Source: Polyangiales bacterium (GTDB lineage: Bacteria; Myxococcota_A; Polyangia; Polyangiales; Ga0077539). From it: a DNA stretch of 64,000 nucleotides. Below the pieces are notes generated by a model. The model was not told the origin of the DNA, made no database searches, and worked only from the letters and a program-made list of their open reading frames with translations. Numbering within the stretch: the stretch's first letter is position 1; every line of letters begins with the position of its first letter. Made by a program: the position numbers and the translations under genes. Positions 20,226 through 63,086 of this stretch are shown one piece after another. Location: NCBI GenBank assembly GCA_044229975.1, contig JBGARZ010000017.1, forward strand, positions 32,001-96,000, written 5' to 3'.

Positions 20226-20241
20226 AGCAGCACGCGTGCCG
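20226..20241 (-). promoter_or_regulatory. Putative sigma54 -24/-12 promoter
   Basis: CGGCACGCGTGCTGCT (GG-N10-GC) upstream of 20212. Confidence 0.6.
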
Positions 20242-20273
20242 AAGGGCCGCCGTGCCTTTCGCCTCTGCTCGCG

Positions 20274-20308
20274 ATGCAGAGGGTGCATCCCTGACGCAGG
20301 GTTTGCGC
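20274..20308. promoter_or_regulatory. Tandem enhancer sites (GCGCA-N5-TGCGC-like)
   Basis: ATGCAgagggTGCAT (20274) and ACGCAgggttTGCGC (20294), between divergent sigma54 promoters. Confidence 0.6.
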
Positions 20309-20338
20309 TTCGACGTTCGGAATCGGCGCTCGGCGGCG

Positions 20339-20354
20339 TGGCACGCGCGGTGCT
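20339..20354 (+). promoter_or_regulatory. Putative sigma54 -24/-12 promoter
   Basis: TGGCACGCGCGGTGCT upstream of 20409. Confidence 0.7.
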
Positions 20355-20408
20355 CACTTCCTCGCCGTGATCGGCCCGAGAGGCACCCGGTCGGAGGAGA
20401 GATCATCG

Positions 20409-21062
20409 ATGGAATCCCAAGACACCGCTGGCGTCGTCGAGTGCGCGATCGGCGTGCGCGAGACCGTGTGCGGCGACGGCGCGACGAAGCGGCGGCTGCT
20501 GGCCCATTGCGATCACCGGCGCGAGGCCGTCGAGCTGATGGACTGCTATGGGTGCGACCGACGTGTCCGGCTGCATCTGCCCACGGCGCGGGCGGCCGGG
20601 GCGGTCGAGTGTCGCCGCGACGCAGACACCGCCGAGCAGCCGTCGAGCGACCTTGGTCTGCGGGTGCCCGTCCGGCTCGTGATGGAACGCGACGTCGTCT
20701 GCCTTCAGCCTGATGTGACGATCGACATGGCGGCGCGCCTGCTCCTTGAGCGGCACGCCGCGGGCGCGCCGGTGATCGACGAGGCCGGGCACCCGGTCGG
20801 CGCGATCTCGCTCTCGGACGTGATGCGCCCGCGCCAGGCCGCGGCCGTCAGGCACACCGTCGCCGACGTGATGACGCCGCTGGTGTTTACCGTCTTCGAG
20901 AACACCGAGCTCTCGCGCGCGGCGGCCGTCATGTCATCCGTGGGCCTCCAGCAGCTCCCGGTGGTGCGGGGCGACGGCACCATCGCCGGCGTGCTGTCGA
21001 CCGTCGACGTGGCCCGTTGGGTGGCGCGCGACGCTTCCTTCGCTGGCTCGGCGACCCGATGA
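20409..21062 (+). CDS. CBS-pair protein with N-terminal four-cysteine domain
   Basis: GGAGGAG SD; CBS motifs VMERDVVCL...GAPVID...VADVMTP...LPVV; Cys-rich N-terminus. Confidence 0.85.
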
Positions 21063-23446
21063 GCGACGCCTCCATCTCCTCCGAGGAGCTCGCCAACCTC
21101 GATGCCTGGTGGCGGGCGGCCAACTACCTCACGGTCGGGCAGATCTATCTCCAGGACAATCCCCTGCTGCGCGAGCCGCTACGCCCCGAGCACGTCAAGG
21201 CGCGGCTGCTCGGGCACTGGGGAACGTCGCCGGGCCTGAGCCTGCTCTACGTGCACCTCAACCGGGCGATCCGCGAGCGCGGCCTCGACACGATCTTCCT
21301 CGCGGGTCCCGGGCACGGCGGCCCCGCGGTGCTCGCCAACCTCTACCTCGAAGGGAGCTACACCGACGTCTACCCGCGGGCGTCGCAGGACCTCGCCGGG
21401 ATGCGCGCGCTCTTCCGGCAGTTCTCCACGCCGGGCGGCGTGCCCAGCCACGTCGGGCCCGCGACGCCGGGCTCGATCCACGAGGGCGGCGAGCTCGGCT
21501 ACGTGCTCACCCACGCGTTCGGCGCAGCCTTCGACAACCCCGACCTGCTGGCTGTCGCGGTTGTGGGCGACGGCGAGGCGGAGACGGGTCCGCTGGAGGG
21601 ATCGTGGAAGGGGGTGAGCTTCTTGAACCCCGTGCGCGACGGCGCAGTGCTCCCGGTGCTGCACCTCAATGGCTACAAGATCGCCGGGCCCACGGTGCTC
21701 GGACGCGCCTCGGACGACGACGTGCGCTCGTTGCTCAGGGGACACGGCTACGACCCTCGCTTCGTCGAGGGCGACGACCCGATGCAGGTCCACCGCGCGC
21801 TCGCGGCGGCGCTCGACGGGTGCCTCGACGAGATCGCGCGCATCCAGCGCGAGGCCCGCGCGCGGGGCTCGATCGACGAGCGGCCGCGCTGGCCGATGAT
21901 CGTACTGCGCACCCCGAAGGGATGGACCGGCCCGAAGGAGGTCGACGGCATTGCCATCGAGGGGACCCACCGCGCGCACCAGGTTCCGCTCGCGGGCGTG
22001 CGCGCCGACCCGCGCCACCTCGCGATGCTCGAAGCCTGGCTGCGCAGCTACCGTCCGGAGGAACTCTTCGACGAGCGAGGCGCGCCCCGCGACTTCCTCA
22101 AGGTGCTCGCTCCCGAAGGCGCACGGCGGATGGGCGCCAACCCTCGCGCCAACGGTGGGGTCGTGTCGCGGCCGCTGGAGGTGCCCGACGTCGCGGCCTA
22201 TGCCGTCCCGGTGACCGCGCCGGGCGTCACGCGCTGCGAATCGACCGGGCAGCTCGGGCTCCTCTTGCGCGACATCTACCGCGCGAACCCGACGAACTTC
22301 CGGCTCTTCTGCCCGGACGAGACGCGCTCCAACCGCCTCGGGGCGGTCTTCGAGGCGGAGCGCCGCTGCCTCGTGGCGCGCCCGCGCTCCGGGGACGAGC
22401 AGGTGTCGCCCGATGGGCGCGTGATGGAGGTGCTGAGTGAGCACAACTGCGAGGGCTGGCTGGAGGGCTACGTGCTCACTGGGCGCCACGGCCTCTTCGC
22501 CACGTATGAAGCCTTCGCGCTCATCGTCGCTTCGATGACCACCCAGCACGCCAAGTGGCTGGAGGCCTGCGACGAACTGCCGTGGCGGGCGCGGGTGCCG
22601 TCGCTCAACATCCTCCTGACCTCCACTTGCTGGCGCAACGACCACAACGGGTTCAGCCACCAGGGGCCCGGCTTCATGGACACGGTGCTTTCCAAGAAGG
22701 GCACCGTCGCGCGCGTGTACCTCCCGCCGGACGCCAACTGCCTCCTGTCGGTCGCCGACCACTGCCTCTGCAGCACCGGCTACGTGAACCTCGTCGTCAT
22801 CGACAAGCAGCCGCAGCTCCAGTGGCTCGACCTCGACGCCGCGCGGGCCCACTGCGCTCGCGGCGCCTCGACCTGGGAGTGGGCCGGCAACGACCACGAC
22901 GGCCCGCCCGACGTGGTGCTCGCCTGCGCGGGAGACACCGCCACGTTGGAGACGCTCGCCGCCGCGAAATGGCTACGCGCTCGCGCCCCGGGGTTGCGTG
23001 TGCGGGTCGTCAACGTCGTCGATCTGATGACGCTCTACTCGCCCGCCGACCACCCCCACGGCATGTCGCAGGAGCGCTTCGTGGAGCTGTTCACCGCCGA
23101 CACGCCGGTGATCTTCGCCTTCCACGGGTACGCGGGCGCGGTGCATCAACTCCTGCACGGTCGCCCCGATCAGCGGCGGTTCCACGTGCGCGGTTACCGC
23201 GAGGAGGGATCGACCACAACGCCCTTCGACATGGTCGTGCTCAACCGCACGAGCCGCTACCACCTCGCCGCCGAAGCGCTACAGCGCACCTTGCGTCCGC
23301 CGGTGGATCGGGACGCCCTGGTCGCGGAGTGTCAGATGACGCTCGCTCGGCATTCCGCCTACGTGCGCGAGCACTTCGAGGACCTCCTCGAGATTCGCGA
23401 CTGGACCTGGAGCGACGACCCTGCGGCGGTGACGCGACGTGGGTGA
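21059..23446 (+). CDS. xfp: Phosphoketolase (XFP family)
   Basis: [54 protein letters not shown]. Confidence 0.96.
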
Positions 23447-24089
23447 CGCGCGCTGCGGGTGCCCGTCGCCGGGCGCCCATCGCCCGCGGCGCGTCGTGCT
23501 CACGGGTGGCCCGGGCGCCGGGAAGACCGCCGTGCTGGAGGTGGTGCGCAAGCGCTTCTGCGAGCACGTGGTGGTGCTGCCGGAGGCCGCGGGCATCGTC
23601 TACGGCGGAGGCTTCCCCCGCCACGCGAGCGACGCCGGGCGGCGCGCGGCGCAGGTCGCGATCTACCACGTGCAGGACCAGCTCGAAGCCCTCGCCCTCG
23701 CGGAGGGCGACCCCGCGCTCGTGCTGTGCGACCGGGGCGTGCTCGACGGGCTCGCCTACTGGCCCGGCACTGCGGAGTCGTTCTTCGCGCAGACCGGGTC
23801 CTCGCGTGCGGCGATCTTCGAGCGGTACGCGGCCGTCCTCCACCTGCGCACGCCCTCCGTCGCGGTCGGCTACAACCACCAGAATCCCCTGCGCGTGGAG
23901 TCGGCCGACGAGGCTTCCGTCATCGACCTGCGTCTGCTCGACGTGTGGCGTGACCACCCGCGGCGCGTCGTCGTCGAGAGCACCGAGGACTTCCTCGACA
24001 AGCTCCGGCGCACGCTCGACGCCCTCCGCGCCGAGCTTCCACCGTGCTGCGAGAACGGGGCGGGGCCCGACCGTCAGATGACGACCTGA
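23439..24089 (+). CDS. AAA_28 (NadR/Ttd14-like) P-loop ATPase/kinase
   Basis: [31 protein letters not shown]. Confidence 0.85.
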
Positions 24090-25652: not shown

Positions 25653-28205
<2,553 letters not shown>

Positions 28206-29839: not shown

Positions 29840-29875
29840 GCGCAGATCCTTCACGCGACGGTGCAGGTCCTGCGT
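29840..29875. promoter_or_regulatory. Tandem enhancer sites (GCGCA-N5-TGCGC-like)
   Basis: GCGCAgatccTTCAC (weak) and GTGCAggtccTGCGT, 21 bp apart. Confidence 0.45.
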
Positions 29876-31636: not shown

Positions 31637-32551
31637 ATGCACCACGACGAATTCCTCCACATGATCGACGAGCGCGAGCTGGCGAGTCGCCGGGCGTTCT
31701 TCGAACTCACTGACGAGGACCTCGCGCGCCTCGCGGCGCTCCGGCCCTTCGCCGAGCGCCATCTCGACGACATCAACGAGGCCTTCTACGAGCTGCTCCT
31801 GGGGCACCTGGAGAGCCGCCGCTTCTTCCCCGACGAGGCGACGGTGCGCCGCGTGAAGCGCCTACAGCGCGACTACTTCCTCGGGCTCTTCGACGGGCGC
31901 TGTGACATGGACTACGTGCGCAACCGCCTCCGCGTCGGGGCCGCGCACGAGCGCATTGGGATGGCCCCGCGCTGGTACATCGGAGCCTACCGCAAGTACC
32001 TCGAGCTCATCCAGGTACGGCTCTTCCGCGACCTGCCCGACGCGGCCGAGGCGCGCGCCGGGTACAGCAGCGTGCAGAAGCTGGTGGCCTTCGACATGGC
32101 CATCGCCATCGACACCTACAACGAGGCCAACCTCCAGACCGTGGGGCGCCACCAGGCAGCCATCCGCGAACTCTCGACGCCGGTGATCCGGGTGCACGAC
32201 GGGGTGCTGCTGCTGCCGCTCATCGGCACCATCGACAGCCAGCGCGCCCAGCAGGTGATGGAGACGGTGCTGGTGCGCGTCACCGAGGAGAAGGCCGAGG
32301 CCATCATCATCGACATCGCGGGCGTTCCCGTGGTCGACACCAAGGTGGCCGACCACCTGCTCAAGACCACCGCGGCGGTGCGGCTGCTGGGCGCCCGCAC
32401 CATCCTCACGGGCATCACCGCGCAGGTCGCGCGCACCATCGTGCAGCTCGGCGTGGACATCTCGGCGATGGAGACCCGGGCCCGCCTCGCCGACGGCATC
32501 GAGCTGGCCCTCTCCATGGTCGGCAAGTCCATCGGTCCGAAGGGACGCTGA
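31637..32551 (+). CDS. rsbR: Globin-coupled stressosome sensor (protoglobin + STAS), RsbR-like
   Basis: Protoglobin FYE...RLRVGAAHERIG; STAS ELSTPVI...PLIGTIDSQRA...VDTKVA. Confidence 0.9.
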   Translation: MHHDEFLHMIDERELASRRAFFELTDEDLARLAALRPFAERHLDDINEAFYELLLGHLESRRFFPDEATVRRVKRLQRDYFLGLFDGRCDMDYVRNRLRVGAAHERIGMAPRWYIGAYRKYLELIQVRLFRDLPDAAEARAGYSSVQKLVAFDMAIAIDTYNEANLQTVGRHQAAIRELSTPVIRVHDGVLLLPLIGTIDSQRAQQVMETVLVRVTEEKAEAIIIDIAGVPVVDTKVADHLLKTTAAVRLLGARTILTGITAQVARTIVQLGVDISAMETRARLADGIELALSMVGKSIGPKGR

Positions 32552-32554
32552 GCG

Positions 32555-32920
32555 ATGCGCGGCCCGATCCCGATCCTGAAGGTGGGGCCCAACCTCCTCA
32601 CCACCATCCACGTCGAGCTCAACGACTCGGTGGCCGAGGCGTTTCAGCGCGACGTGCTCAGCGCCATCGAGCGCACCAGCGCCGGGGGCCTGGTGATCGA
32701 CATCTCCTCGCTGGAGGACGTCGACACCTACGTCGCGCGGCTGCTCGCCGAGACCGGCCGGATGGCGGCGCTCATGGGCACCCGCACCGTGCTGGTGGGC
32801 ATGCGCCCGGAGGTGGCCGCGACGCTGGTGCGCATGGGCTACGCGATGGACGGCGTGGAGACGGCGCTGGACGTCGACCGCGGCATCGCGCGCCTCGCGG
32901 CCCTGCGCGGAGGGGCGTAG
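32555..32920 (+). CDS. rsbS: Stressosome STAS antagonist RsbS
   Basis: IPILKVG, GLVIDIS, VDTYVA, GMRPEVAATLV. Confidence 0.9.
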   Translation: MRGPIPILKVGPNLLTTIHVELNDSVAEAFQRDVLSAIERTSAGGLVIDISSLEDVDTYVARLLAETGRMAALMGTRTVLVGMRPEVAATLVRMGYAMDGVETALDVDRGIARLAALRGGA

Positions 32921-32928
32921 GCGGGCCC

Positions 32929-33345
32929 ATGGCGGTGCAGATCATCGACGCGGTGGAGCTGCCCATCCGCTACGAGACGGACATCGCGGACGTGCGTCGC
33001 CGGGCGCGAGCGCTCGCTCAGGGACGGGGCTTCGACTCCTTCGCCACCGCGGCGCTCACCACCGCGGCCTCGGAGATCGCGCGCAACGTCTGGGTGCACG
33101 GCGGCGGCGGCACGGCCCTGCTGGAGGACCTCGCGGACGGTCACCGCGCGGGTGTGCGCCTGACCTTCATCGACGCAGGCCCTGGGATTGCGAATCTCGA
33201 CCGCGTGTTGGTCGGCGGCTTCAGCACGGTGCGCTCGCTCGGCCTCGGCGTGTCGGGTACGCGGCGGCTGGTGGACGAGTTCACCATCGAAACGGCGCCG
33301 GGCCGCGGCACCAAGGTGGTCATCACGAAATGGACGCGCTTCTAG
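32929..33345 (+). CDS. rsbT: Stressosome Ser/Thr kinase RsbT
   Basis: SEIARN, DAGPGI, GGFST..SLGLGVSGTRRLVDEF. Confidence 0.9.
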   Translation: MAVQIIDAVELPIRYETDIADVRRRARALAQGRGFDSFATAALTTAASEIARNVWVHGGGGTALLEDLADGHRAGVRLTFIDAGPGIANLDRVLVGGFSTVRSLGLGVSGTRRLVDEFTIETAPGRGTKVVITKWTRF

Positions 33346-34349
33346 TCGAGCGGTGGCTGGGGGACGGGCCGCGGACCCCGATCTATGATCAGGCCTCGGT
33401 GTCCGTCGTTCGCGAGGCGGTGCGCGCGCTGGGCGTCCGGCTCGGGATGTCGGAGGTGGCGATCGGGTCGCTTGCGATCGTGGTGAGCGAGCTGGCGACC
33501 AATCAGCTCCGGCACGCGCGCGACGGCGCCATCGCGCTTCGCGCCGTGGAGCGCGGTGGGGTCCCGGGCGTCGAGGTGATCGCGGCCGACCGGGGCACCG
33601 GTATCCGCGACGCGGCGGAGGCCATGGACGGCGTGCCACGCACCCACGGGAGCCTCGGCATCGGCCTGTCGGGAGTGCAGCGGCAATCCGACGAGGTCGA
33701 CTTCGACGTGCGGCTGGGGCAGGGCACCTGCGTGCGCGCGCGGAAGTTCGCCGCTGCGGTGGCGCGGCGGCGCGAGGTGGCCGTCCTCGGGCGGAGCTTC
33801 GCGGGCGAGCCCGTGAGCGGCGACGACGCGACCTTCGAGCGGTCGGGTGACCTCCTGGTGCTGGCGCTGGCCGATGGCCTGGGCCACGGGCCTGAGGCGC
33901 TGGTGCCCGCGCGGCGGGCGATCGAGCTGGTGCACGGGGCGCCGGGCGTCGCTCCGGCGACGCTGCTGAGCGACGCGCACGAGGCGCTCCGGGGGTCGCG
34001 CGGCGCGGTGATGGCCGTGGCGCGCATCGACGAGGGGGCGTCGTCGCTCGCCCACGCCGCGGTCGGTAACGTCGTGACGCGCGTCCTCGGCGATCGCGCC
34101 AGCCGTACCTACGGCGACGTCCAGGGGGTGCTGGGGATGGCCGCCCCGCGCCCGCCCCGCGTCGTTGAAGAGGTGGGAGCGCTCGGGCCAAGGGACCTGC
34201 TCGTGATGTGCTCGGACGGCCTGCGCTCGCGCCTCGACCTGGGCGACACGCGGCACCTCGCGTCGCGGCACCCGCTCGTGACGGCCGAGCACATGCTGCG
34301 CCTCTTCGGGCGCGACAACGACGACGCCACGCTGATCGTTGTGCGCTGA
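33330..34349 (+). CDS. rsbX: RsbX-like protein: HATPase domain + SpoIIE/PP2C phosphatase
   Basis: SELATN, DRGTGI; SGDD, ADGLGHG, CSDGL, DDATLIV. Confidence 0.82.
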   Translation: MDALLVERWLGDGPRTPIYDQASVSVVREAVRALGVRLGMSEVAIGSLAIVVSELATNQLRHARDGAIALRAVERGGVPGVEVIAADRGTGIRDAAEAMDGVPRTHGSLGIGLSGVQRQSDEVDFDVRLGQGTCVRARKFAAAVARRREVAVLGRSFAGEPVSGDDATFERSGDLLVLALADGLGHGPEALVPARRAIELVHGAPGVAPATLLSDAHEALRGSRGAVMAVARIDEGASSLAHAAVGNVVTRVLGDRASRTYGDVQGVLGMAAPRPPRVVEEVGALGPRDLLVMCSDGLRSRLDLGDTRHLASRHPLVTAEHMLRLFGRDNDDATLIVVR

Positions 34350-34356: not shown

Positions 34357-35739
34357 CTACGGGGCGCCGCGGTCCTTCGGCGAGGTGCGACCGTACTCGT
34401 GGAGGCGGTACTGGATCGTACGGATGCTGAGGTCCAGCATCTCGGCGGCCTTCGCGGTGGAGCCGCCCACGGCGTCGAGCGTCGTCTCGATGGCGTGGCG
34501 CTCGATCTGCGCCATCGTCGACCCGGGGATCTGCACCCCCTGCCGACCCGCGACCGCCACCTGGATGGGGAGGTCGTCCTCGTCGATGAGTTCGCCCTCG
34601 GCGAGCACCACGGCGCGCTCGACGGCGTTCTCCAGCTCCCGCACGTTGCCCGGCCAGCGGTGCGACAGGAGCCTCGCCACGGCCCGGTCGGTGAAGCCCT
34701 CGATGGCCTTGCCGTTGTCGCCCGCGAAGCGCGCCAGGAAGTGCCGCGCCAGCGTGAGGATGTCGTTGTCGCGCGCCCGCAGCGGCGGCATCTCCACGTG
34801 CACCACGTTGAGGCGGTAGTAGAGGTCCTCGCGGAAGCGCCGGGCCTCGACCTCCGCGGGCAGGTCGCGGTTGGTGGCCGCGATGAGGCGCACGTCCACC
34901 TTCACGCTCTCGTTGCCGCCCACGCGCTCGAAGGTGCGCTCTTGCAGCACCCGCAAGAGCTTCACCTGGATGGCCATCGGGATCTCCCCGATCTCGTCGA
35001 GGAAGAGCGTCCCGCCGTGGGCCTGCTCGAAGCGCCCCACGCGCCGCCGGTCGGCGCCGGTGAAGCTCCCGCGCTCGTGGCCGAAGAGCTCGCTCTCCAG
35101 CAGCGTCTCGGCGAGCGCCGCGCAGTGCAGCGTCACGAAGGGTTTGCCCGCCCGTGGGCCGCGCGCGTGGATGGCCCGCGCCAGCTCCCCCTTGCCGGTG
35201 CCGCTCTCTCCCGTGATGAGCACCGTCGCCCGCGCCGGGGCGACCTGTGCGGCCACCTTGTAGACCTTCTGCATCGCGGGAGAGGCACCGATGAGGCCCT
35301 CCAGGCCCCGGGCGTCGCGCTCGCTGAGCTGCCGCCGCAGCTGGCTCGCCTCGGCGCGAACGTCGCGGTGCTCGATGGCGCGGTCGACGGCGACCTGGAG
35401 CTCGTCAAAATCGACGGGCTTCATCAGGTAGTGCTCGGCGCCCTGCCGCATCGCCGCGACGGCGGAGGCCACGTCGTGCGAGGCCGTCACCATGATCACC
35501 GGGAGGTCGGGGTACTGCGCGCGCAGCTTGCCCAGCAGCTCGATGCCGTCCATGCGGGGCATCTTCAGGTCGGTGACGACCACGTCGGGACAGGTCTCGG
35601 CGGCGCGCTCCAGCGCTGCCACGCCGTCGGCCGCGGTCTCGACCTCATAGCCCTCCAGGCGAAGCAGCTTTTCCAGCCCCGAGCGCGCCGCCTCCTCGTC
35701 GTCGACCACCAGAACCCTGATCTTCGATTTGCCGCTCAA
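34357..35739 (-). CDS. Sigma54-dependent response regulator (REC-AAA-HTH; NtrC family, NmpR-like)
   Basis: [46 protein letters not shown]-terminal HTH; TTG start after GGAGG. Confidence 0.93.
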
Positions 35740-48213: not shown

Positions 48214-48248
48214 GCGCAGACGCTGCGCCCCACGCGCAAGGCGTGCGA
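48214..48248. promoter_or_regulatory. Tandem enhancer sites (GCGCA-N5-TGCGC)
   Basis: GCGCAgacgcTGCGC and GCGCAaggcgTGCGA, 20 bp apart, between divergent sigma54 promoters. Confidence 0.7.
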
Positions 48249-50588: not shown

Positions 50589-51326
50589 TCAGTGGCAGTG
50601 GCAGTGGGCGGGCGACATCGCGGGGACGGTCGGTTGCAGGAAGACGGCGGTCTGCTGGCAGACGGCGACCAGGCTCAGCACCCCCATCACGCCGAGCGCG
50701 AAGCCGATGGCGCGCCGCACTGGCGCCCGGCGCACCAGGGACGAAAGCACCCCGGCGGCGACGGACATGGCGAGCAGCATCGGCAGCGTCCCGAGCCCGA
50801 ACGCCATCATCGCGAGCGCGCCCGTGGTGGCCGACCCGGCGCTCAGCGCCAGCGCGAGCGCGGTGTACACGAGGCCACAGGGCAGCCACCCCCACAAGAC
50901 ACCTAGCGCTATCGCCTGGCGCGGCGAGCGCACCGGCAGCAGCGCCTGCGCGGCCGGTCGGAGGCGCTCCCAGAGCGGCGCGCCGAGCGCTTCGAGCCGG
51001 GCGAAGAGCGGCCACACGCCCGCGAGGTAGAGGCCCGCGCCCAGCATCAGCGCGCCTGCCACGGCCTTGAGTGCGAGCTGGGCTCCCGCGACGGGCCAGA
51101 GACCCTGGGCGACGGCGCCGAGCCCGCCCGCGAGGAGCCCGGCGAACGTGTACGACCCGATGCGGCCGAGGTTATAGGCCAGCAGGTAGGGGAGCGGCCG
51201 CGAGCGCGCCTCGGCCGGCAGGCCCGCGCAGAGGACGCCCACGACGCCGCCGCACATCAGCACGCAGTGGGTGCTGCCCGCGAGCCCGAGCGCGAAGGCA
51301 GCGACGATCGTCGCGTCGACCGTCAC
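50589..51326 (-). CDS. DsbD_2 / TauE-SafE-like membrane protein of cco clusters
   Basis: GSTHCVLMCGG, YNLGRIGSY, GWLPCGLVY, FGLGTLP. Confidence 0.88.
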   Translation of the reverse strand: MTVDATIVAAFALGLAGSTHCVLMCGGVVGVLCAGLPAEARSRPLPYLLAYNLGRIGSYTFAGLLAGGLGAVAQGLWPVAGAQLALKAVAGALMLGAGLYLAGVWPLFARLEALGAPLWERLRPAAQALLPVRSPRQAIALGVLWGWLPCGLVYTALALALSAGSATTGALAMMAFGLGTLPMLLAMSVAAGVLSSLVRRAPVRRAIGFALGVMGVLSLVAVCQQTAVFLQPTVPAMSPAHCHCH

Positions 51327-52705
51327 AGCACCACCCCCGGCCCGAGGCAGGGCGCTGTGAGCACGCGGGACGAACCGCCGCTCGCGCGCACCGTGATGGG
51401 CACGCCGAAGTCGCCCCGCCTCGACGCGCGCGGGACGCTCACGAACACCGGCACCGTGACCCCCTCCAACGGTCCGAGCACGACCTCGCGCAGCGGCGCG
51501 ACCACCTCCACGCCCGCGACGTTCGACGGCTCGATGCGCAGCGTGGCGCGCTCGCTGCGCTTGTTTACGAGGTGGATCTGGAAGGCGTTGCGGACGCGCC
51601 CCTCGACCAGCTCGTAGGGTGCGCCCGGCAGGCGCATGAGGTTGGCCTCAAAGTCCGCCCGCTCGCGCAGCGTGAGGCCCGCGACCAGGGCGCCGATCGC
51701 TCCGAGCGCGAGGTAGGCCGCGAGCCGGGGACGCCAGAGGCGACGGGTCTCGCCGTCGAGGCCGCGCACCGAGTCGTAGCGGATGAGCCCGCGCGGTCGG
51801 TGGAGCTTGTCCATGATCTCGTCGCACGCGTCGATGCAGGCCGTACAGCCGATACAATCGAGCTGTGTGCCGTGGCGGATGTCGATGCCCGTCGGGCACA
51901 CTACCACGCAGCGGTGGCAGTCGACGCAGTCGCCGTGGTTGGGTTCGGTGGCCTTGCCGCGGGGTTCGCCGCGGCGCGCGTCGTAGCCGACGGTGAGCGA
52001 GTCGGCGTCGGTGAGCGCGCCCTGGAGCCGGCCGTAGGGGCACACCCCCAGGCAGAGCTGCTCGCGGAAGTGCGCGAAGTTGGCGTAGAGCAGGGCCGCG
52101 ATGACGAAGGTCCAGGCGAAGGCTTCGGGGTGCGCGGCGGGCGCGGCGCGCACCATCGCGTAGAGGCGCGGCAGCGAGACGAAGTAGCTGATGAAGACGT
52201 GCGCGAGCAGCAGCGACACCACCGCGAAGAGCGCGTGCTTGGTCACCTTGCGGGCGAGCTTGCCCGCGTCCCAGGGCCCCTTGTCGCGGCGCACGCGGGC
52301 CTCGCGCGGACCCTCGATCGCCCGCTCGATGCGGCGGTAGACCCCTTCGAGGAACACCGTCTGCGGGCACGCCCAGCCGCACCACACCCGTCCCGCCACG
52401 GCGGTGAGCAGCAGCAGCGCGAAGCCCACGCCCGTGACGAGGAAGAATACCAGCGGCAGGTCTTGCGCGTTGAAGGCGGCGCCGAAGAGGAAGAAGCGCC
52501 GCGCCTCGATGTCGAGAAACACCGCCGGGTTTCCGCCTACCGACACCCACGGCAGCGCGGCGTACACCGCGATGAGCACGGCGAACACCACCCGGCGCGC
52601 GGTGGTGAAGCGCCCGTGGGTGTCCGCGGGGTAGACCCGCGCGTGCGAGCCATCGGCGCGCAGCGAACTCGGGGCGAGCACCGGGAGGTGGTGGCGGGCG
52701 GTCAT
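51323..52705 (-). CDS. ccoG: cbb3 oxidase accessory protein CcoG
   Basis: GRVWCGWACPQTV, FREQLCLGVCPYG, CVDCHRCVVVCP, CIGCTACIDAC. Confidence 0.93.
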   Translation of the reverse strand: MTARHHLPVLAPSSLRADGSHARVYPADTHGRFTTARRVVFAVLIAVYAALPWVSVGGNPAVFLDIEARRFFLFGAAFNAQDLPLVFFLVTGVGFALLLLTAVAGRVWCGWACPQTVFLEGVYRRIERAIEGPREARVRRDKGPWDAGKLARKVTKHALFAVVSLLLAHVFISYFVSLPRLYAMVRAAPAAHPEAFAWTFVIAALLYANFAHFREQLCLGVCPYGRLQGALTDADSLTVGYDARRGEPRGKATEPNHGDCVDCHRCVVVCPTGIDIRHGTQLDCIGCTACIDACDEIMDKLHRPRGLIRYDSVRGLDGETRRLWRPRLAAYLALGAIGALVAGLTLRERADFEANLMRLPGAPYELVEGRVRNAFQIHLVNKRSERATLRIEPSNVAGVEVVAPLREVVLGPLEGVTVPVFVSVPRASRRGDFGVPITVRASGGSSRVLTAPCLGPGVVL

Positions 52706-52720
52706 CGGTCTGGGTCTCCT

Positions 52721-53302
52721 TCAGGGCTCGGCGGTGCCCTGCGGTGCCTTGCCGCTGGGCACGTTGCGGTTGCGGATGGTGACCAGGTACGCGGTCACGG
52801 CGAGCACGCGGTCGGCCCCGAGCTGCGGCCCCCAGGCGGGCATGCCGCGCGCGGTGACCCCTTCGGTGACCGTGCGGTACACCCGGTCGGGCGCCGCGCC
52901 GTGCAGCCACGCCGCGTCGGTGAGGTTGGGCCCGATGCCGCCGCCACCGGTCGCGCCGTGGCAGGCCGCGCAGGTGCTCGCAAACACCCCGGCGCCCTGG
53001 CGCACCGTGGCGTCGTCGCGGGACATCGCCAGCAGCATCGCGGGGGTGATGGTCCCGCGGGCGCGCATCCGAGCGGCCTCGGCGGCGTACACGGCCTGCA
53101 TCTCGCGGTGGAGTGTCTGCCGCGGCGTCTCGGCGACGGCGAAGACCTCGACCCAGTACCAGTACCCGAAGGCGAAGACGATCGTGGCGAAGAGTGCCGT
53201 GAGCCACCAGGTGGGCAGGTCGTTGTCGTACTCCTCGATGCCGTCGTACTCGTGCAGCACGCGGTCGACGTTGGCGTCGGGCGTCACGGCGCGGTCAGTC
53301 AT
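52721..53302 (-). CDS. ccoP: cbb3 oxidase subunit III (single heme)
   Basis: HEYDGIEEYDNDLPTWW, one CAACH, GPNLTD, GMPAW. Confidence 0.92.
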   Translation of the reverse strand: MTDRAVTPDANVDRVLHEYDGIEEYDNDLPTWWLTALFATIVFAFGYWYWVEVFAVAETPRQTLHREMQAVYAAEAARMRARGTITPAMLLAMSRDDATVRQGAGVFASTCAACHGATGGGGIGPNLTDAAWLHGAAPDRVYRTVTEGVTARGMPAWGPQLGADRVLAVTAYLVTIRNRNVPSGKAPQGTAEP

Positions 53303-53468
53303 CGGCGTCCTCCCGGGCGGCGAGCGGCACGGCGGCGGCGCCGTCGAAGTGGGCCGCGCGGCGCAGCACCACCGAGAGCAGCACGGCGGTGAACGCGACG
53401 AGGAAGATCACCAGCGCCGCGAGCGGCAGGGCCAGCAGGGGGCTGTGAGCGAAGAACTCCCGGTACAT
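53295..53468 (-). CDS. ccoQ: CcoQ-like small subunit
   Basis: 57 aa, single TM, ends AAAVPL; lies between ccoNO and ccoP. Confidence 0.65.
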   Translation of the reverse strand: MYREFFAHSPLLALPLAALVIFLVAFTAVLLSVVLRRAAHFDGAAAVPLAAREDADD

Positions 53469-53470
53469 GG

Positions 53471-55825
53471 TCAGTGCGCTCCTTGCGCAGGGGTGGTCGC
53501 GGCGGGGGCCGCGGCGGTCGCGGCGTCGGGCGCGTGGCCCAGTCGCTGGAGATAGGCGATGAGGGCGAGCACCTCGCGGTCGGGCGCGACGCGGGCGCCG
53601 TTGTCGGCGAGGTCGCGGGCGATCTCGGCGGCCTGCGCGCGGGCGTCGGTCACCGCGTTGGCGATGTCGCGGTCGGTGTACGGCACGCCCAGCGTGCGCA
53701 TCGCGGTGAGCTTGTCGGCGGTACGCGAGAGGTCGAGCGGCGCCCGCGCCATGAACGCGTACGGCGGCATGTTGGACCCCGGCGAAGTGGCCCGCGGGTC
53801 GAGCAGGTGGCGGTAGTGCCAGAGGTTGGGGTAGCGGCCGCCCTCGCGCGCGAGGTCGGGCCCGGTGCGCTTGGAGCCCCACTGGAAGGGGTGGTCGAAG
53901 CGCGACTCCTCCGCCGTCGAGGCCTCGCCGTAGCGCAGCGTCTCGAAGCGCAGCGGCCGGATCATCTGCGAGTGGCAGTTGTAGCAACCCTCGCGCAGGT
54001 AGAGGTCGCGCCCCTCCAGCTCCAGCGGGCGGTACGGATGCGCGTGCGTGCCGGCCTCGCTTGCGGGCCGGAGCACGATGGTGGGGATGATCTCCGCGAC
54101 GCCACCGATGAGCACGGCGATCACCGTGAAGACAGTGAAGATGAGCGCGCGTCCTTCCAGGAGACGGTGCCAGGTGGGGCGGCCGTCTTCGCGGGTGAGC
54201 TGGATGCCGAGGGTTCCGCCGAAGGCGACGCAGACGCCCAGCAGCGCCACCGCGAGGCTCGCCACCTGGCTGGTGACGGCCATCGCGCCGAAGAGCACGG
54301 CGCTCAGCGTGACGATGACCACTGGGGCGCTGAAGACCATCGCCGTCCAGCGCACTTCGGGCTCCTCCTTGGGCTCCTCGAAGACCGTCATGGTGCCGTC
54401 GACGGCGTGGCCGCGGCGGGCGGTGGCGACGAGGTTCCAGGCCATGAGGCCCATGCCCGCGAGGTAGAGCGAGCCGCCCGCGAGGCGCATCCAGTACATC
54501 GGCCGCAGCGCGAGCACCGTCTCGATGAAGTTCGGATAGACGAGCGCGCCGGTCGGAGTGAGCGCGCGCCACATGAGGCCCTGGGTGACTCCAGAGACCC
54601 ACATCGAGACGACGTAGAGCAGGATGCCCACCGTCCCGACGTAGAAGTGCAGCTCCGCGGCGGCCTTGGAGTGGAGCTTCGTGCCGTAGAGGCGCGGCAC
54701 CATCCAGTAGAACATCCCGGCGGCCATCAGGCCGTTCCAGCCGAGGGCGCCGGCGTGCACGTGGCCGACGATCCAGTCGGTGTAGTGGGCGAGGCTCGAC
54801 ACGCTACGGATGGAGAGCAGTGGCCCCTCGAAGGTGGCCATCCCGTAGAAGGTGATGCCCGCCGCGAAGAACTTGAGCACCGGCTCTTCGCGCACCTTGG
54901 CCCAGGCGCCGCGCAGCGTGAGCAGGCCGTTGAGCATGCCGCCCCAGCTCGGCGCCCAGAGCATCACGCTGAAGATCATCCCCAGCGTCTGCGCCCACTC
55001 GGGCAGCGCGGTGAACAGCAGGTGGTGCGGCCCCGCCCAGATGTACATGAACACCAGGGCCCAGAAGTGGATGATCGAGAGCCGGTACGAGTAGACCGGG
55101 CGCTCGGCCGCCTTCGGCACGAAGTAGTACATGATCCCGAGCACCGGGGTGGTCAGGAAGAAGGCGACGGCGTTGTGGCCGTACCACCACTGCACCAGTG
55201 CGTCCTGCACGCCGCCGAAGATCGAGTAGCTCTTGAAGGGCGAGACCGGCAGCGCGAGCGCGTTGACGACGTGCAGCACCGTCACGGTGACGATGGTCGC
55301 GATGTAGAACCACACCGCGACGTACAGGTGCTTCTCGCGGCGGCGCGCGAGGGTCCAGAAGAAGTTGATGGCGAAGACGACCCACACCGCGGCGATGGCG
55401 AGGTCGATGGGCCACTCCAGCTCCGCGTACTCCTTGCCCTGCGTGATGCCGAGCGGGAGCGTGACGGCGGCCGCGACGATGATGGCCTGCCAGCCCCAGA
55501 AGTGGATCTTGGCGAGGAGGTCGGACGGCAGCCGCGCCTTCACGAGGCGCTGGGTGGAGTAGTAGATCCCGCTGAAGATCATGTTGCCCACGAACGCGAA
55601 GATCACGGCGTTGGTGTGCAGCGGGCGCAGGCGACCGAAGGAGAGGTGCGGGTCGACGTTGGCCCGCCACCACGCCATCTGAAGGGCGATGAGCGCGCCC
55701 ACGGACATGCCGATGAGCCCCCAGAAGACGGAGGCCCAGAGGAACTTTCGCGCGACGTCGTCGTTGTAGACGATGCGGGTGCCGACGAGGCTCGGCCGGG
55801 GCGGTTCGAGGTCGGATGTGCTCAC
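53471..55825 (-). CDS. ccoNO: Fused cbb3 oxidase subunits I/II
   Basis: RLRPLHTN, WWYGHNAVAF, AGPHHL, GHVHAG; CYNCHSQMIRP, WGSKRTGPDL. Confidence 0.96.
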   Translation of the reverse strand: MSTSDLEPPRPSLVGTRIVYNDDVARKFLWASVFWGLIGMSVGALIALQMAWWRANVDPHLSFGRLRPLHTNAVIFAFVGNMIFSGIYYSTQRLVKARLPSDLLAKIHFWGWQAIIVAAAVTLPLGITQGKEYAELEWPIDLAIAAVWVVFAINFFWTLARRREKHLYVAVWFYIATIVTVTVLHVVNALALPVSPFKSYSIFGGVQDALVQWWYGHNAVAFFLTTPVLGIMYYFVPKAAERPVYSYRLSIIHFWALVFMYIWAGPHHLLFTALPEWAQTLGMIFSVMLWAPSWGGMLNGLLTLRGAWAKVREEPVLKFFAAGITFYGMATFEGPLLSIRSVSSLAHYTDWIVGHVHAGALGWNGLMAAGMFYWMVPRLYGTKLHSKAAAELHFYVGTVGILLYVVSMWVSGVTQGLMWRALTPTGALVYPNFIETVLALRPMYWMRLAGGSLYLAGMGLMAWNLVATARRGHAVDGTMTVFEEPKEEPEVRWTAMVFSAPVVIVTLSAVLFGAMAVTSQVASLAVALLGVCVAFGGTLGIQLTREDGRPTWHRLLEGRALIFTVFTVIAVLIGGVAEIIPTIVLRPASEAGTHAHPYRPLELEGRDLYLREGCYNCHSQMIRPLRFETLRYGEASTAEESRFDHPFQWGSKRTGPDLAREGGRYPNLWHYRHLLDPRATSPGSNMPPYAFMARAPLDLSRTADKLTAMRTLGVPYTDRDIANAVTDARAQAAEIARDLADNGARVAPDREVLALIAYLQRLGHAPDAATAAAPAATTPAQGAH

Positions 55826-56004
55826 GGGATATCGGCTCCTGAGGGTGTGCGGGGAGAGGGTTGAGCGTCGTCGTCGCCGAGGGGCGCGAGGGCGAGGCGG
55901 TCGGCGTGGTCGAGGTCGCGCTGGCGCGCCGAGTACGCGAAGAGGAGCAGCGCACCGGCCACCAGCGCGAGGCTCACGAAGACCTGGAGGACGAGGACTT
56001 CCAA
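55822..56004 (-). CDS. ccoS: cbb3 oxidase maturation protein CcoS
   Basis: MEVLVLQVFVSL..., single TM then D-rich tail; between ccoI and ccoN. Confidence 0.78.
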   Translation of the reverse strand: MEVLVLQVFVSLALVAGALLLFAYSARQRDLDHADRLALAPLGDDDAQPSPRTPSGADIP

Positions 56005-58412
56005 AGGGGGCTCCGGGAGGAGAGCGAGGCGACGGTGGCCAGCAGGATGCTGAGCGAGCTCGCGGGCATCACCACCGCGCAGAGCAGCGGCGACATGCGG
56101 CCCGCGAGCGCGAGTCCGACCGTGACGGCGTTGTATGCGAGCGCGATGCCGAGGTTGCGGCGGTGGATGCGGGCGAGGGCGTGCGCCGCGCGCAACGCGA
56201 GCCCGACGGGGCGCAGGCCCGCCGTGACGACGTAGAAGTCCGTGCGCGCGGGCATGAACGGCCGGTCGATGGCGGGCGTGCCGGAGCAGAACGCGCGCTC
56301 GACGGCGAGGGCGTCGTTGATGCCGTCGCCGACCATGAGCGTGTCGTGCAGATCGTGCGCCTCCAGCCAGCGGGCCTTGTCGTCCGGCGAGAGTCCCCCG
56401 ATGGCGCGCTCCGCGGGGACGCCCAACGCGACGGCCATGGACGACACCCGTCCGGGCGCGTCGCCGCTCAGGATCCAGACCTCGTATCCCTCGGCGGTGA
56501 GCTGCGCGAGCTCGGCCCGGGCGCCCGGGCGGAGCACCTCCTCGGTGCGCATGCGAGCGAGCGCGACCCGGTCGACAGAGAAGACGAGATCACCGTCGGT
56601 CGCGGCCGCCGCGGCGGCCCACGCGGGCTCGCCGAGGCGGTACACGTGGTCGCGCGTGCTGAGCTCGACGCCGCGCCCGGCGAGCTCGCGCACGTCGAGC
56701 GAGTCGTCGAAGCGGAGGCCGTTGTCCGGCAGCGCCGTGCGCACCGCGAGGCTCTTCGGGTGGGTGCTGCGGACGGCGAGGTTGTAGAGGGCGGCGCGGT
56801 CGTCGGGCGCGAGCGCGTCGAGCGCCGCGGGGTCGGCGAGGCGGAGGGCGCCGGTGGTGAGCGTCCCGGTCTTGTCGAAGACGACGCGCCGCACGGCCGT
56901 GGCGCGGTCGAGGAAGCTCGGCGAGCGCACGAAGAGGCCCGCGCGCCGCAGGCCCGCCTGCGCGAGCTCGTAGGCCATCGGGGTCGCGATGCCGAAGGCG
57001 CACGGGCAGGTGACGATGAGGACGGCCGTCGCGACTTCCATCGCGCGTTGCGGGTCATTCGTCACGACGGTCCAGCCGATGAATCCCAGCGCGGCGAGGG
57101 AGAGCACGCCGACGACCCATGCGGCGGCGAGGCGACGCCACCACGGGGTCGCGCGTGCGGCGTCGGCTCGGGGGACGGGGTTGCGTAGCAGGCCCACGAG
57201 CGGCGAGCCCGCGAAGTCGGTCGACGCGCCCACCCGCACCGCTCGTTGGCCCAGGTTGAAGGCGCCCGCGGGGACGGCCTCGCCGCGGACGAAGGCGCGC
57301 GGGGCGCTCTCGCCCGAGATCCAGTCGAGGGAGCAGCTCGCCTCGTCATCGAGGAGCGCGCCGTCGACCGGGACGACGTCACCCGGCGCGATGAGCATCA
57401 TGTCGCCCGCCGCGACCTCGCGGCACGGGACGAGCGACACCGCGCCGTCGCGCACCCGGCGGGTGAGCAGGCCGTCGATGCCGTCGGAGGCGAGGAGGTA
57501 GTGGCGGTTGCGCTCCAGCACCCGCTCCTGGAGCCAGCGGCCCGCGAGCATGAGGGTGATGAAGGTCGAGAGCGTGTCGAAGTAGGCGCCGCGCCCGTCG
57601 CGCCCGGCGGCGAAGGCCCAGGTCGACCCGGCGAAGGTGAGCACGATCCCGAGCGCGATGGGCAGGTCGAGGTGCACGACCCGGCGCCGCACGGCCTGCC
57701 ACGCCGAACGCAGAAACACCGACCCGCCGACCGAGACGCTCGCCAGGGCCAGGAGGAAGGAGAGCCACGCGAAGAGCGAGTGCACGGGTCCGGTGCGCAG
57801 CCCAAGGTAGAGCGGGAGCGAGAAGATCATCCCGTTGACGGTGAGGGCCGCGCACACGCCGAGGCGCGTGAGCAGCGTGCGCGAGGGCTGCGTCTCGGCT
57901 TTGAGCGGCGGTCCCAGCGCGTAGCCGAAGGACTCGACGTCGCGCACGTAGGCGCGCAATCGGAAGGTGCGGGTGACGGTGAGCGAGACGCGCCCGACGC
58001 CCGGGTTGACGACGTCGCGGAGCGCGCCGGGCTGGCGGCGGAAGAGCTCGCCCAGCAGCCACACGCAGGCCGCGCAGTGGAGGCCCTGCACGTCGAGCTC
58101 GACGCGGCACACGCCCTCGGCGGCGGCCACCCGAGCCTCGATCGACTCCAACCATTTCAGGTCGTGCGCCGAAGACCCCGTCGCAGCGACCGGCGCGCCC
58201 GAGGTGCCCTGGAGGTCGTAGTAGCGGGTGAGCCCCTGGGCCTGGAGCAGATGGTGAACCGCCTCGCAGCCCGTGCAGCAGTAGGGTCCCTCATCGCCCG
58301 CGAGGGCTGTCCCGCAGTGGAGGCAGAGGGTCTCGTCGATGCCCGCGCCCGAGGCGCGCCGCGAGGCAGCGTCGTCAGCGGGGGCGGACGACGTGACAGG
58401 CTCGGTCTGCAT
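55974..58412 (-). CDS. ccoI: Heavy-metal (Cu) P1B-type ATPase CcoI
   Basis: CLHC...CCTGC, CAAC, SGES, CPC, DKTGTLT, GDGINDA. Confidence 0.92.
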   Translation of the reverse strand: MQTEPVTSSAPADDAASRRASGAGIDETLCLHCGTALAGDEGPYCCTGCEAVHHLLQAQGLTRYYDLQGTSGAPVAATGSSAHDLKWLESIEARVAAAEGVCRVELDVQGLHCAACVWLLGELFRRQPGALRDVVNPGVGRVSLTVTRTFRLRAYVRDVESFGYALGPPLKAETQPSRTLLTRLGVCAALTVNGMIFSLPLYLGLRTGPVHSLFAWLSFLLALASVSVGGSVFLRSAWQAVRRRVVHLDLPIALGIVLTFAGSTWAFAAGRDGRGAYFDTLSTFITLMLAGRWLQERVLERNRHYLLASDGIDGLLTRRVRDGAVSLVPCREVAAGDMMLIAPGDVVPVDGALLDDEASCSLDWISGESAPRAFVRGEAVPAGAFNLGQRAVRVGASTDFAGSPLVGLLRNPVPRADAARATPWWRRLAAAWVVGVLSLAALGFIGWTVVTNDPQRAMEVATAVLIVTCPCAFGIATPMAYELAQAGLRRAGLFVRSPSFLDRATAVRRVVFDKTGTLTTGALRLADPAALDALAPDDRAALYNLAVRSTHPKSLAVRTALPDNGLRFDDSLDVRELAGRGVELSTRDHVYRLGEPAWAAAAAATDGDLVFSVDRVALARMRTEEVLRPGARAELAQLTAEGYEVWILSGDAPGRVSSMAVALGVPAERAIGGLSPDDKARWLEAHDLHDTLMVGDGINDALAVERAFCSGTPAIDRPFMPARTDFYVVTAGLRPVGLALRAAHALARIHRRNLGIALAYNAVTVGLALAGRMSPLLCAVVMPASSLSILLATVASLSSRSPLWKSSSSRSS

Positions 58413-58998
58413 GACGGAGCCGCTCAGCAAGGGGGAGGCCGGACGCGTCGGCCCGCGGGTTCGCGACGCTCGACGAAGGTTGGCGCAAGGCGTGCGCCTG
58501 ACACGCGAGACCTGCGCCTGCCGGGGGTGCAGCGTGGTCGTGCTTCGGGGAGCTGCTCGCGACAGGGGTGGCCGTGACGTCGTCTCCGGAGCCCGCGCGG
58601 TCGACCGCGGCGAGCACGTCGGCCGGCAGACGCGCCTCGCACCACGGGAACAGCTCGCGCTCCTCGAAGCGGACGTGCTCGCGGAGCAGAGCCGCGAACA
58701 TCGCCGCCGCCCTGCGATCGCCGCCCGCGGAGGCCTCGACGAATGCGCGCACCGCGGCGTGCTCGCGCTCGACCCGCAGGGCGAGGGCGTCGCCGCCGAA
58801 CAGGCGTAGCGCGGGCAGCAGGACCGACTCCTCGACGCGGAAGTGGGGCTCCAGCTCGCGTTCGAAGTGCGCGCTCAGCGCTGGACCGAGGGAGGGGTCC
58901 ATGGGCACAGCAATGGCCCGGCGCGCGACATCGCGGGCCAGTACGAGCGCGCGGTGGTGCTCTGCGGAGAGGCGATGGAGTCGGGGGTCGCGGATCAC
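58375..58998 (-). CDS. Hemerythrin-domain protein (C-terminal tail runs over the cco promoter; true end may be earlier)
   Basis: LSAEHH, HFRVEE, EH, HVRFEERELF; GTGA overlap at 58998. Confidence 0.8.
   Translation of the reverse strand: MIRDPRLHRLSAEHHRALVLARDVARRAIAVPMDPSLGPALSAHFERELEPHFRVEESVLLPALRLFGGDALALRVEREHAAVRAFVEASAGGDRRAAAMFAALLREHVRFEERELFPWCEARLPADVLAAVDRAGSGDDVTATPVASSSPKHDHAAPPAGAGLACQAHALRQPSSSVANPRADASGLPLAERLRHADRACHVVRPR
58426..58441 (-). promoter_or_regulatory. Putative sigma54 -24/-12 promoter of the cco operon
   Basis: CGGCCTCCCCCTTGCT. Confidence 0.55.
58483..58517. promoter_or_regulatory. Tandem enhancer sites (GCGCA-N5-TGCGC)
   Basis: GCGCAaggcgTGCGC and ACGCGagaccTGCGC, 20 bp apart. 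Confidence 0.65.
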
Positions 58999-62711: not shown

Positions 62712-62718
62712 GTTGGCG

Positions 62719-62904
62719 CTACGCGGCGAACGACACACGGGCCACGGCGCGCCCACCCAGGCGCTCACGTAATGCCCCTCGGACGGTGAGGGTCGCGAGC
62801 GCGGTCGCGAGGCGCGGATCCGGCACGACAGCCTCGGCGGCGTCGAACGCCAACGCGACGAGGTCGCCCAGCGAGATGGTGTCAGTTCGGCGGGTTCGGC
62901 TCAT
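62719..62904 (-). CDS. Small hypothetical protein
   Basis: GGAG SD, upstream sigma54-like promoter; LGDLVALAFDAA helix. Confidence 0.55.
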   Translation of the reverse strand: MSRTRRTDTISLGDLVALAFDAAEAVVPDPRLATALATLTVRGALRERLGGRAVARVSFAA

Positions 62905-62934
62905 GGTTCAACACTCCGTTCGGGTAGGAGCAAG

Positions 62935-62950
62935 AGCAGAGCGCGTGCCG
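62935..62950 (-). promoter_or_regulatory. Putative sigma54 -24/-12 promoter
   Basis: CGGCACGCGCTCTGCT. Confidence 0.65.
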
Positions 62951-62992
62951 AGCACGCCGTGGGCATCGGCGGGCGCGACGCGCGTGAGCTCA

Positions 62993-63028
62993 GTGCAGCC
63001 GGTTCGCCGTGCGGCGCAGAACGTGCGC
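62993..63028. promoter_or_regulatory. Tandem enhancer sites (GCGCA-N5-TGCGC)
   Basis: GTGCAgccggTTCGC and GCGCAgaacgTGCGC, 21 bp apart. Confidence 0.62.
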
Positions 63029-63070
63029 GAGGCCGCGTCCCAGTCGGCGTGGCGTGGCCGGGCACGAACG

Positions 63071-63086
63071 TGGAACGACTCTCGCT
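63071..63086 (+). promoter_or_regulatory. Possible sigma54 -24/-12 promoter (weaker match)
   Basis: TGGAACGACTCTCGCT upstream of 63139. Confidence 0.4.

Follow-up and report, generated by a model that had tools for sequence, protein, structure and literature searches.

In FixLJ and DosRST, a haem kinase that works in the absence of oxygen has direct control of a hypoxia regulon; the haem is bound in PAS or GAF domains and the regulators are not of the sigma54 kind. Here we describe a candidate for such a switch with its haem site in a globin. It is encoded in a 64,000-nucleotide stretch of a Polyangiales bacterium (assembly GCA_044229975.1, contig JBGARZ010000017.1, positions 32,001 to 96,000; hereafter the window, C17:32001-96000 of the source assembly G000), where a globin-coupled histidine kinase, a sigma54 activator and many predicted target genes lie together. 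The closest described system is the NmpRSTU pathway of Myxococcus xanthus. In the published account, NmpU phosphorylates NmpT and the receiver of NmpS, not NmpR; NmpS alone phosphorylates NmpR; and in the authors' model oxygen-bound NmpU holds NmpS off (PMC6211767). The NmpR site is GCGCA-N5-TGCGC, paired with a preferred gap of 14-15 nt. It occurs at 7 promoters, each at a locus of its own: those of a CBS gene operon with nmpR, of nmpU, of a Usp gene, of the cbb3 operon, of hemN with hemerythrin, of mxan_1578 and of pilR, the last being the published exception with a gap of 5 nt (PMC11841059).

AfGcHK of Anaeromyxobacter sp. Fw109-5 (PDB 5ohe) consists of a globin and a kinase; its oxygen-bound form is active and its deoxy form silent (PMC8697598, where the polarity of FixL is likewise stated). 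The lxa locus of Burkholderia cenocepacia is a cluster of ~50 kb with internal regulators and one Anr/Fnr-like motif at many intergenic points; it encodes Usp and phospholipid-binding proteins, a nitroreductase, a cation ATPase, a metal-dependent RNase and a protease (PMC3721108). The cluster described here is like it in layout and, at the level of gene class only, in content, with Usp, BON, nitroreductase, ATPase and RNase genes under one motif and regulators inside. Its motif is instead of the NmpR/sigma54 kind, and a globin kinase, a cbb3 operon and a globin stressosome lie within it. Clustered low-oxygen loci under one motif are thus already known; the new part is the sensor.

With the M. 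xanthus NmpR regulon the locus shares the enhancer consensus, the sigma54 promoters, an NmpR-family activator and a protoglobin sensor, as well as targets: a CBS protein, Usp, a cbb3 operon with P-type ATPase, hemerythrin and the sensor operon itself. It differs in that no nmpT or nmpS lies beside the sensor, which has a PAS domain and an NmpS-type transmitter; in the period of 20-21 bp (gap 5-6) of its paired sites; in having ~26 pairs in two islands rather than 7 scattered promoters; and in the two activator and three kinase copies of the source genome (PMC6211767, PMC11841059). In our reading, the locus is an islanded NmpR-type sigma54 regulon, and its sensor, which unites an NmpU-like globin with a PAS-kinase of NmpS type, likely passes phosphate straight to the adjacent activator and would be net-active when the haem loses oxygen. 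We put the probability of this reading at about 0.6.

The comparison relies on M. xanthus-type reference loci from metagenomes. No named Myxococcus or Anaeromyxobacter entry appeared among the 120 matches listed per protein search, or in a pattern search of 401 genomes. A scan with a published nmpU primer gave 18 metagenome loci, 7 of which begin an NmpU-like protein. In two M. xanthus-type loci taken from the metagenome scan, L185 and L191, nmpU-T-S and nmpR follow the M. xanthus gene order, and the L185 activator contains peptides encoded by the published NmpR primers.

The sensor gene (37180..38808, + strand, 542 aa) had been called a protoglobin kinase in a first-pass annotation made from the sequence alone, and Pfam bears this out with the architecture protoglobin-PAS-HisKA-HATPase. 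The implied equation with NmpU applies to the globin only, the transmitter being of NmpS type. Identity to NmpU of L185 is 51% in the globin and only 34% in the kinase part; the H-box reads HEIRNPLNGALLH in the window kinase, HEIRNPLNAAALQ in L185 NmpS and HELRNPLGVIETS in L185 NmpU. The globin matches AfGcHK with an E-value of 7.8e-42, and its haem ligands, distal Tyr46 and proximal His99, are kept in 30 of 31 PAS-type relatives. The phospho-accepting His326 lies in an NmpS-type PAS-DHp-CA module. In trees of 83, 87 and 33 kinase domains (the first two quick, the last two from chosen subsets) the window kinase goes with NmpS, nearest to the REC-PAS-kinases of complete U-T-S-R clusters (L150, for example), and a clade with NmpU transmitters is rejected in the approximately unbiased (AU) test on the 33 domains (p-AU 0.013, a test run after the first trees had been seen). 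At the junction, the stretch after the last globin helix matches the coil that follows the NmpS receiver. A structural model has a single helix over residues 129-190 with a mean predicted local distance difference test score (pLDDT) of 90.2; this model is alignment-based, the single-sequence fold reaching only pLDDT 43.

Such proteins are not confined to this genome. When the globin region was searched, all but four of the 120 matches listed were annotated with PAS, many Sorangium isolates among them. The five protoglobin matches of the source genome (10.0 Mb in 39 contigs, ~71% GC, 93% complete, 3% contamination) are three fused kinases and two RsbR proteins. At that completeness, nmpT or nmpS follows none of the three globin kinases, and NmpT has no clear match in the assembly, the best reaching 61 bits. 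A literature search that covered the text supplements of PMC6211767, subscription papers lying outside it, turned up neither a globin-PAS-kinase that carries an NmpS transmitter nor a collapse of the Nmp relay. Fig. S2 of that paper surveys homologues and may show fused forms; its legend mentions divergent domain architectures.

Gene context gives the same picture across related genomes. Among loci gathered around kinase or activator matches (L-numbers), 77 have a globin kinase: 40 with an NmpS-type transmitter (S-type), 27 with an NmpU-type transmitter (U-type) and 10 of a third type tied to an unrelated activator. An NmpR-type activator lies near 38 of the 40 S-type kinases, the two misses being short contigs, one with the activator cut at the contig end, and nmpS lies within 6 kb of none of the 40. 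Of the U-type loci, 11 have the activator, each of them together with nmpS; another 15 lack both genes, and 1 has nmpS without the activator. In clusters at 80% identity the figures are 26/28 for S-type loci with activator and 11/11 for U-type activator loci with nmpS. The set includes repeats of one genome and related loci, and its counts, which are not independent, are to be taken as a pattern rather than a test statistic. As a separate observation, the third type (L089-L093, L095, L096, L128, L131, L132) consists of ~495-aa globin-PAS-like kinases by a different sigma54 activator, often beside cbb3 genes, and suggests a parallel oxygen regulon almost without NmpR-type pairs.

The S-type globins do not form one clade (p-AU 0.0016). 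In two groups of S-type kinases that lack PAS, the globins are sister to relay-type NmpU globins and the transmitters are sister to NmpS of related loci, as expected from deletion within a U-T-S cluster. On these sequences, the S-type pairing of globin and kinase arose more than once. The distance from globin to phospho-His is 36 residues in 27/27 U-type kinases, and 31, 37, 42 or 45 in 12/12 PAS-less S-type kinases.

These patterns suggest a route and a mechanism. A fusion inside an nmpU-nmpT-nmpS cluster would have removed the NmpU transmitter, NmpT and the NmpS receiver, leaving a globin kinase that would be the cognate kinase of the island activator; the four-protein relay was likely shortened to a direct two-protein switch. 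Phosphorylated activator dimers would bind the paired sites and open sigma54 promoters of presumed low-oxygen genes, namely those for cbb3 oxidase, hemerythrin, Usp, CBS, Acg and BON proteins. Because the globin is joined straight to the NmpS transmitter, the inverter of the relay, the NmpS receiver, is removed; with the inverter gone and the targets still low-oxygen genes, the fused protein would have to be net-active in the deoxy state, as a deoxy-on kinase or an oxy-on phosphatase. The sign change would then be made inside the protein, via the helix connecting the globin with the PAS domain. There is precedent in YF1, whose kinase polarity can be reversed by linker changes of a single residue (PMC5431215), and in engineered kinases that are inverted by linker changes (PMC5431215, PMC11164954). 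The linker lengths of the PAS-less S-type kinases, which are never 36, are in line with sign reversal.

Alternatively, signalling could be direct and keep the AfGcHK sign, with the kinase on when oxygen is bound and the regulon on at some oxygen. The globin does retain the Tyr and His of AfGcHK, which is active as Fe(II)-O2 (PMC8697598). Counter to this, hypoxia induces these same targets under this same motif in M. xanthus (PMC11841059), the target classes overlap both that regulon and the low-oxygen lxa locus, and the 36-residue linker is never kept in PAS-less S-type kinases. We regard this alternative as improbable. Compared with AfGcHK, the window protein has an added PAS domain and another kind of transmitter, and it is predicted to be net-active without oxygen, opposite to AfGcHK.

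The activator (34357..35739, - strand) was rightly placed by the first-pass annotation, and Pfam gives it the order REC-AAA+-HTH. It is an NmpR co-orthologue with Asp57, a recognition helix RTIQY and the loop GSFTGA instead of GAFTGA, as in the L191 orthologue. Its closest named relatives come from Myxococcota genomes (84%) and Polyangium (73-75%). Searching G000 with the L185 activator returned a copy on contig C3 (470 bits), the window protein (469) and an orphan on C32 (461), the next match scoring 384; these three fall within one clade with support of 99 in a tree without L185. The palindrome, described beforehand as similar to that of the M. xanthus pathway, is in fact the published NmpR consensus (PMC11841059).

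A different route would be a relay that survives in trans: the island activator would receive its phosphate from an unlinked NmpS-type kinase on C34, and the role of the globin kinase would be limited to modulation, for example by switching off the C34 kinase or by loading single-domain receivers as sinks. The C34 protein (C34:191545-193113) is a REC-PAS-kinase with 41-44% identity to NmpS of four canonical clusters; its H-box resembles the one in the window kinase, at least 7 genomes with a fused kinase have a comparable unlinked gene, and stand-alone REC genes are found in the island and, in relatives, next to the activator. Its receiver, however, carries the NmpU-partner signature, with its own U-type kinase two genes upstream, and the window kinase lacks the U-type specificity residues. 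A regular-expression census found that signature in only this one receiver of the genome, the three NmpR-type receivers differing from it. Finally, the C34 kinase belongs to another branch, with clusters whose activators group with the C32 orphan. We consider the relay in trans unlikely. The C34 pair (L146, G000:C34:189541-193113) and the unlinked C32 activator (L161) may possibly be an Nmp relay rewired to another signal. As a side observation, single-domain receiver genes recur in the island (46844, 49045 and C17:97668) and beside the activator of relatives (L123:4265-4660); it is possible that they are phosphate sinks replacing NmpT.

Several points weigh against a directly wired, deoxy-active globin kinase. 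C34 does encode an intact NmpS-type REC-PAS-kinase, with a U-type kinase that has no globin match two genes away, the orphan NmpR-type activator on C32 (C32:1014196) offers another route into the regulon, and there may be cross-talk between the C34 and C32 proteins and the island. The link of the window lineage to its nearest NmpS group is moderately supported (84/85, 90/83), and the window globin is not resolved as sister to NmpU of the same nearest-NmpS loci. The trees are not firmly rooted, and fission rather than fusion may have separated the two forms. The linker-length argument rests on PAS-less relatives, not on the PAS-containing protein of the window. Lastly, the island activator itself lacks a good sigma54 site (the score is 2.3, compared with 15.4 at the C3 copy).

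The promoter and enhancer motifs are themselves real. GG-N10-GC is present at all 14 sigma54 positions listed at first pass, and the consensus given there, YGGCACG-N4-BTGCW, fits 12 of them with at most one mismatch; 63071 has 2 and 58426 has 3, the latter retaining GG and TTGCT in the paralogous C3 promoter. In the window the consensus has 16 matches against a shuffled mean of 7.8, and 0/100 window shuffles reach 16. Intergenic sites are ~23-fold denser in the island (2.54/kb; 25 in 9.8 kb) than elsewhere (0.11/kb; 136 in 1199 kb), with island bounds set after the motifs had been seen; here and below, intergenic counts depend on gene calls made with our own codon model.

The seven enhancer pairs also proved to be present, all with period 20 or 21. 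These tandem GCGCA-N5-TGCGC sites lie ~30-60 bp upstream of -24/-12 elements, and the seven could serve up to 11 promoters. Five have at most 2 total mismatches to the doubled motif; 29840 has 4 and 20274 has 5. Genome-wide there are 19 pairs at this stringency (4 for a reversed-pattern control), of which 16 are intergenic and 13 of those lie on C17 at 67.8-133.6 kb; the window holds 5 of the intergenic pairs, against 0.12 expected by length. A matrix built from 12 pairs outside the window ranks the window's seven at 2, 4, 7, 19, 22, 23 and 26 of 314 genome-wide. At a score of at least 20 there are 41 pairs, including the 12 used for training. Of the 28 that are intergenic, 26 fall in the two islands, and the 13 coding pairs are probably chance occurrences.

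The geometry of these sites departs from that of M. xanthus. Instead of the preferred gap of 14-15 nt (period 29-30), the island intergenic pairs have period 20-21 in 26/31 cases and period 30 in one. Across loci, with periods of 17-44 allowed and some genomes entering with more than one locus, activators with an RT recognition helix, as in the island, have nearby pairs of period 19-21 (35/41) and those with an RK helix have pairs of period 29-31 (17/21); the pairs of L185 and L191 have period 29. Several PAS-less fused kinases accompany RK activators and period 29-31, and spacing therefore tracks the activator clade, not the kinase type. The same figures bear on whether the sites are read by the C32 orphan rather than by the island activators. 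Its nearly equal NmpR score (461 against 469-470 bits) and similar recognition helix speak for that; its RK-type group goes with the long period and the island pairs have the short one, and we think it very improbable.

Taken together, the NmpU-NmpT-NmpS-NmpR relay may have collapsed several times independently into an NmpR-wired globin kinase, with a new linker flipping the sign each time, and the activator's enhancer spacing may have shrunk in this lineage from about three to two helical turns. We judge this joint history to have slightly better than even odds.

The locus had been described as a self-contained 45-kb regulon. We likewise find an NmpR-type sigma54 regulon whose genes are of the low-oxygen kind and whose sensor and activator lie within the cluster; it is neither so short nor self-contained. 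Island A spans ~83 kb (about C17:50-134 kb) and reaches C17:133.7 kb, 38 kb beyond the window, with genes for an Acg nitroreductase, PEP synthase, BON proteins, more Usp proteins, Dps, a DsrE-DsrC-flavoprotein operon, LonC, a MacB system, OsmC and acetyl-CoA hydrolase. A paralogous Island B lies on C1:74-97 kb and C3:4-21 kb, contigs that may or may not adjoin. It repeats the activator (92%), kinase (76%), stressosome, cbb3 operon, mgtA, beta-CASP gene and others at 61-93% protein identity. A third globin kinase on C15 has a Usp gene and two enhancer pairs. Outside both islands, C29:92226 has a period-19 pair and a strong sigma54 site upstream of an efflux-type operon, which is thus one more candidate target.

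The island copies share ~80-86% DNA identity over the main blocks, and trees place the paralogous kinases together, and likewise the paralogous activators. Island B may have been acquired from a congener. Contamination by whole contigs is an unlikely source, since paralogues of at least 70% identity concentrate in C1:80-97 kb and C3:0-21 kb and are rare elsewhere there. No tRNA was found on C17, C1 or C3 as a sign of a mobile element; integrases were not searched. We rejected the giant island as a trait of the genus: in G001, G002, G162 and G252 (these G-numbers being congener genomes, their assemblies mostly fragmented) the 20-kb flanks of the sensor cluster are almost without island homologues. 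Eight congener genomes, likewise mostly fragmented, have 0-9 strict pairs against 19 in G000. One further difference between the islands is that LonC is in two frames in Island A (L002:6180-7946 and 5445-6179) and whole, at 818 aa, in Island B.

Within the window, the sensor operon shows predicted positive autoregulation: a period-21 pair (35833..35868) lies 31 bp ahead of the sigma54 site 35900..35915 (+) of the CBS-SDR-kinase operon, in which Pfam finds a tandem-CBS protein (35929-36354, +) and a short-chain dehydrogenase (SDR; 36374-37162, +) before the kinase. The first-pass view that divergent promoters share pairs is clearly right for two of them. One, of period 20 (20274..20308), lies between sites 20226(-), ahead of a beta-CASP metallo-beta-lactamase nuclease (18809..20212, -; Pfam, profile match), and 20339(+), ahead of a target operon for a CBS protein, the phosphoketolase Xfp and an AAA_28 protein (20409..24089, +; Pfam). 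The other, also of period 20 (48214..48248), lies between 48158(-), with hemerythrin (47720-48130) and Usp (47254-47694) behind it, and 48289(+), with the gene 48363-49007 and a REC gene. Sharing is weak on one side at the two period-21 pairs 29840..29875, between the strong 29784(-) (DUF2505 and a broken lycopene cyclase) and the weak 29939(+) (a baeRF10-like gene, 29967-30341, +), and 62993..63028, between the strong 62935(-) (an ABC ATPase) and the weak 63071(+), behind which an Acg-family nitroreductase begins at 63139 and continues past the window end. The cbb3 oxidase operon (50589..58430, -; ccoI, small genes, fused ccoNO, ccoP, ccoG and DsbD_2) has a period-20 pair (58483..58517) 40 bp from its degenerate site 58426(-), both kept in the C3 copy. 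Site 59851 has no pair within 200 bp upstream.

Two proposed direct targets are not supported. The 200 bp upstream are free of enhancer pairs both at 28255(-), which is the sigma54 site of the MgtA-like P-type ATPase (25653..28205, -), and at 46787(-), that of the molybdoenzyme operon (39607..46735, -; NasC/FdhF-like, with a membrane protein, MopB, 4Fe-4S, Rieske, DUF6755, SLAC1, MobA and DUF7009); the start of this operon is without a pair in two congeners also. The mgtA site lies in the tail of a lycopene cyclase gene (28206-29227, -) that has a frameshift near its start and, without a stop of its own, reads in frame into mgtA; we rejected the resulting 1161-codon frame (25653-29138) as a true fusion. 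The molybdoenzyme itself (43125-45392) scores 761 bits against the NCBIfam NasC cut-off of 1100 and 522 against 666 for Fdh-alpha, below both. Its cassette is 92% identical at the DNA level in G001 and 84% in G003, in differing contexts, and was not found as a block in six other congeners searched.

This operon and the RIC gene (38809-39483) adjoin the kinase, and its nitrate-reductase-like content could indicate that the working ligand is nitric oxide (NO), carbon monoxide (CO) or redox state rather than oxygen; the CO and Fe(III) forms of AfGcHK are indeed active (PMC8697598). Arguing against this, the molybdoenzyme promoter has no pair, the RIC promoter has none in three congeners, in two of which RIC lies beside another sigma54 activator, and the conserved neighbours of the kinase are cbb3, Usp and CBS genes. 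We doubt such a ligand as strongly as an oxygen-bound active state. In the window, the period-21 pair 39572..39607 serves RIC, 41 bp from its site 39514(-). The pair, at the 3' end of the DUF7009 gene, is conserved in three congeners (L123:4671, L124:4646, L106:7156), where the genes on either side converge on it and no promoter is obvious. RIC looks like a recent recruit to it.

Both islands (window 30349-34349; C3:16116-20095) have a globin-RsbR stressosome operon and a divergent kinase beside the activator. In the window the operon (31637..34349, +) encodes globin-STAS RsbR, RsbS, RsbT and an RsbX-like protein, no pair scoring here, and the kinase is at 30349-31533. This stressosome is a possible second oxygen input without an NmpR motif of its own; oxygen-sensing stressosomes are already known (PMC9237108). 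At the left edge of Island A, 18187-18724 appears to be what is left of an Acg nitroreductase gene together with its upstream sequence, and shares 86% identity with C1:75217-75758. Immediately to the left of the island lies a defence-like region (4701-17756). It has an IetA/IetS pair (16770-17756 and 14224-16590; best E-values 5e-69 and 1e-35) as well as an operon in which the gene of a Mokosh-like helicase (6266-9517) is accompanied by an AAA ATPase gene and others without annotation.

With this regulon, NmpR control reaches a second class of myxobacteria, with ~26 predicted enhancer pairs; the two site spacings seen across loci, with periods of ~20 and ~30, offer a direct test of how enhancer geometry follows the activator. 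If our reading is true, the globin-PAS-kinase family, which is also found in cultured Sorangium and Polyangium, would comprise the first globin-coupled histidine kinases active without oxygen, and would form a natural series for studying the reversal of sensor polarity. The family provides natural globin-kinase pairs with predicted opposite oxygen logic, a junction visible in the sequence and several independent origins. Thus, the setting of sign in sensor kinases, and the gain and loss of phosphorelay steps, could be tested with proteins from cultured Sorangium or Polyangium.

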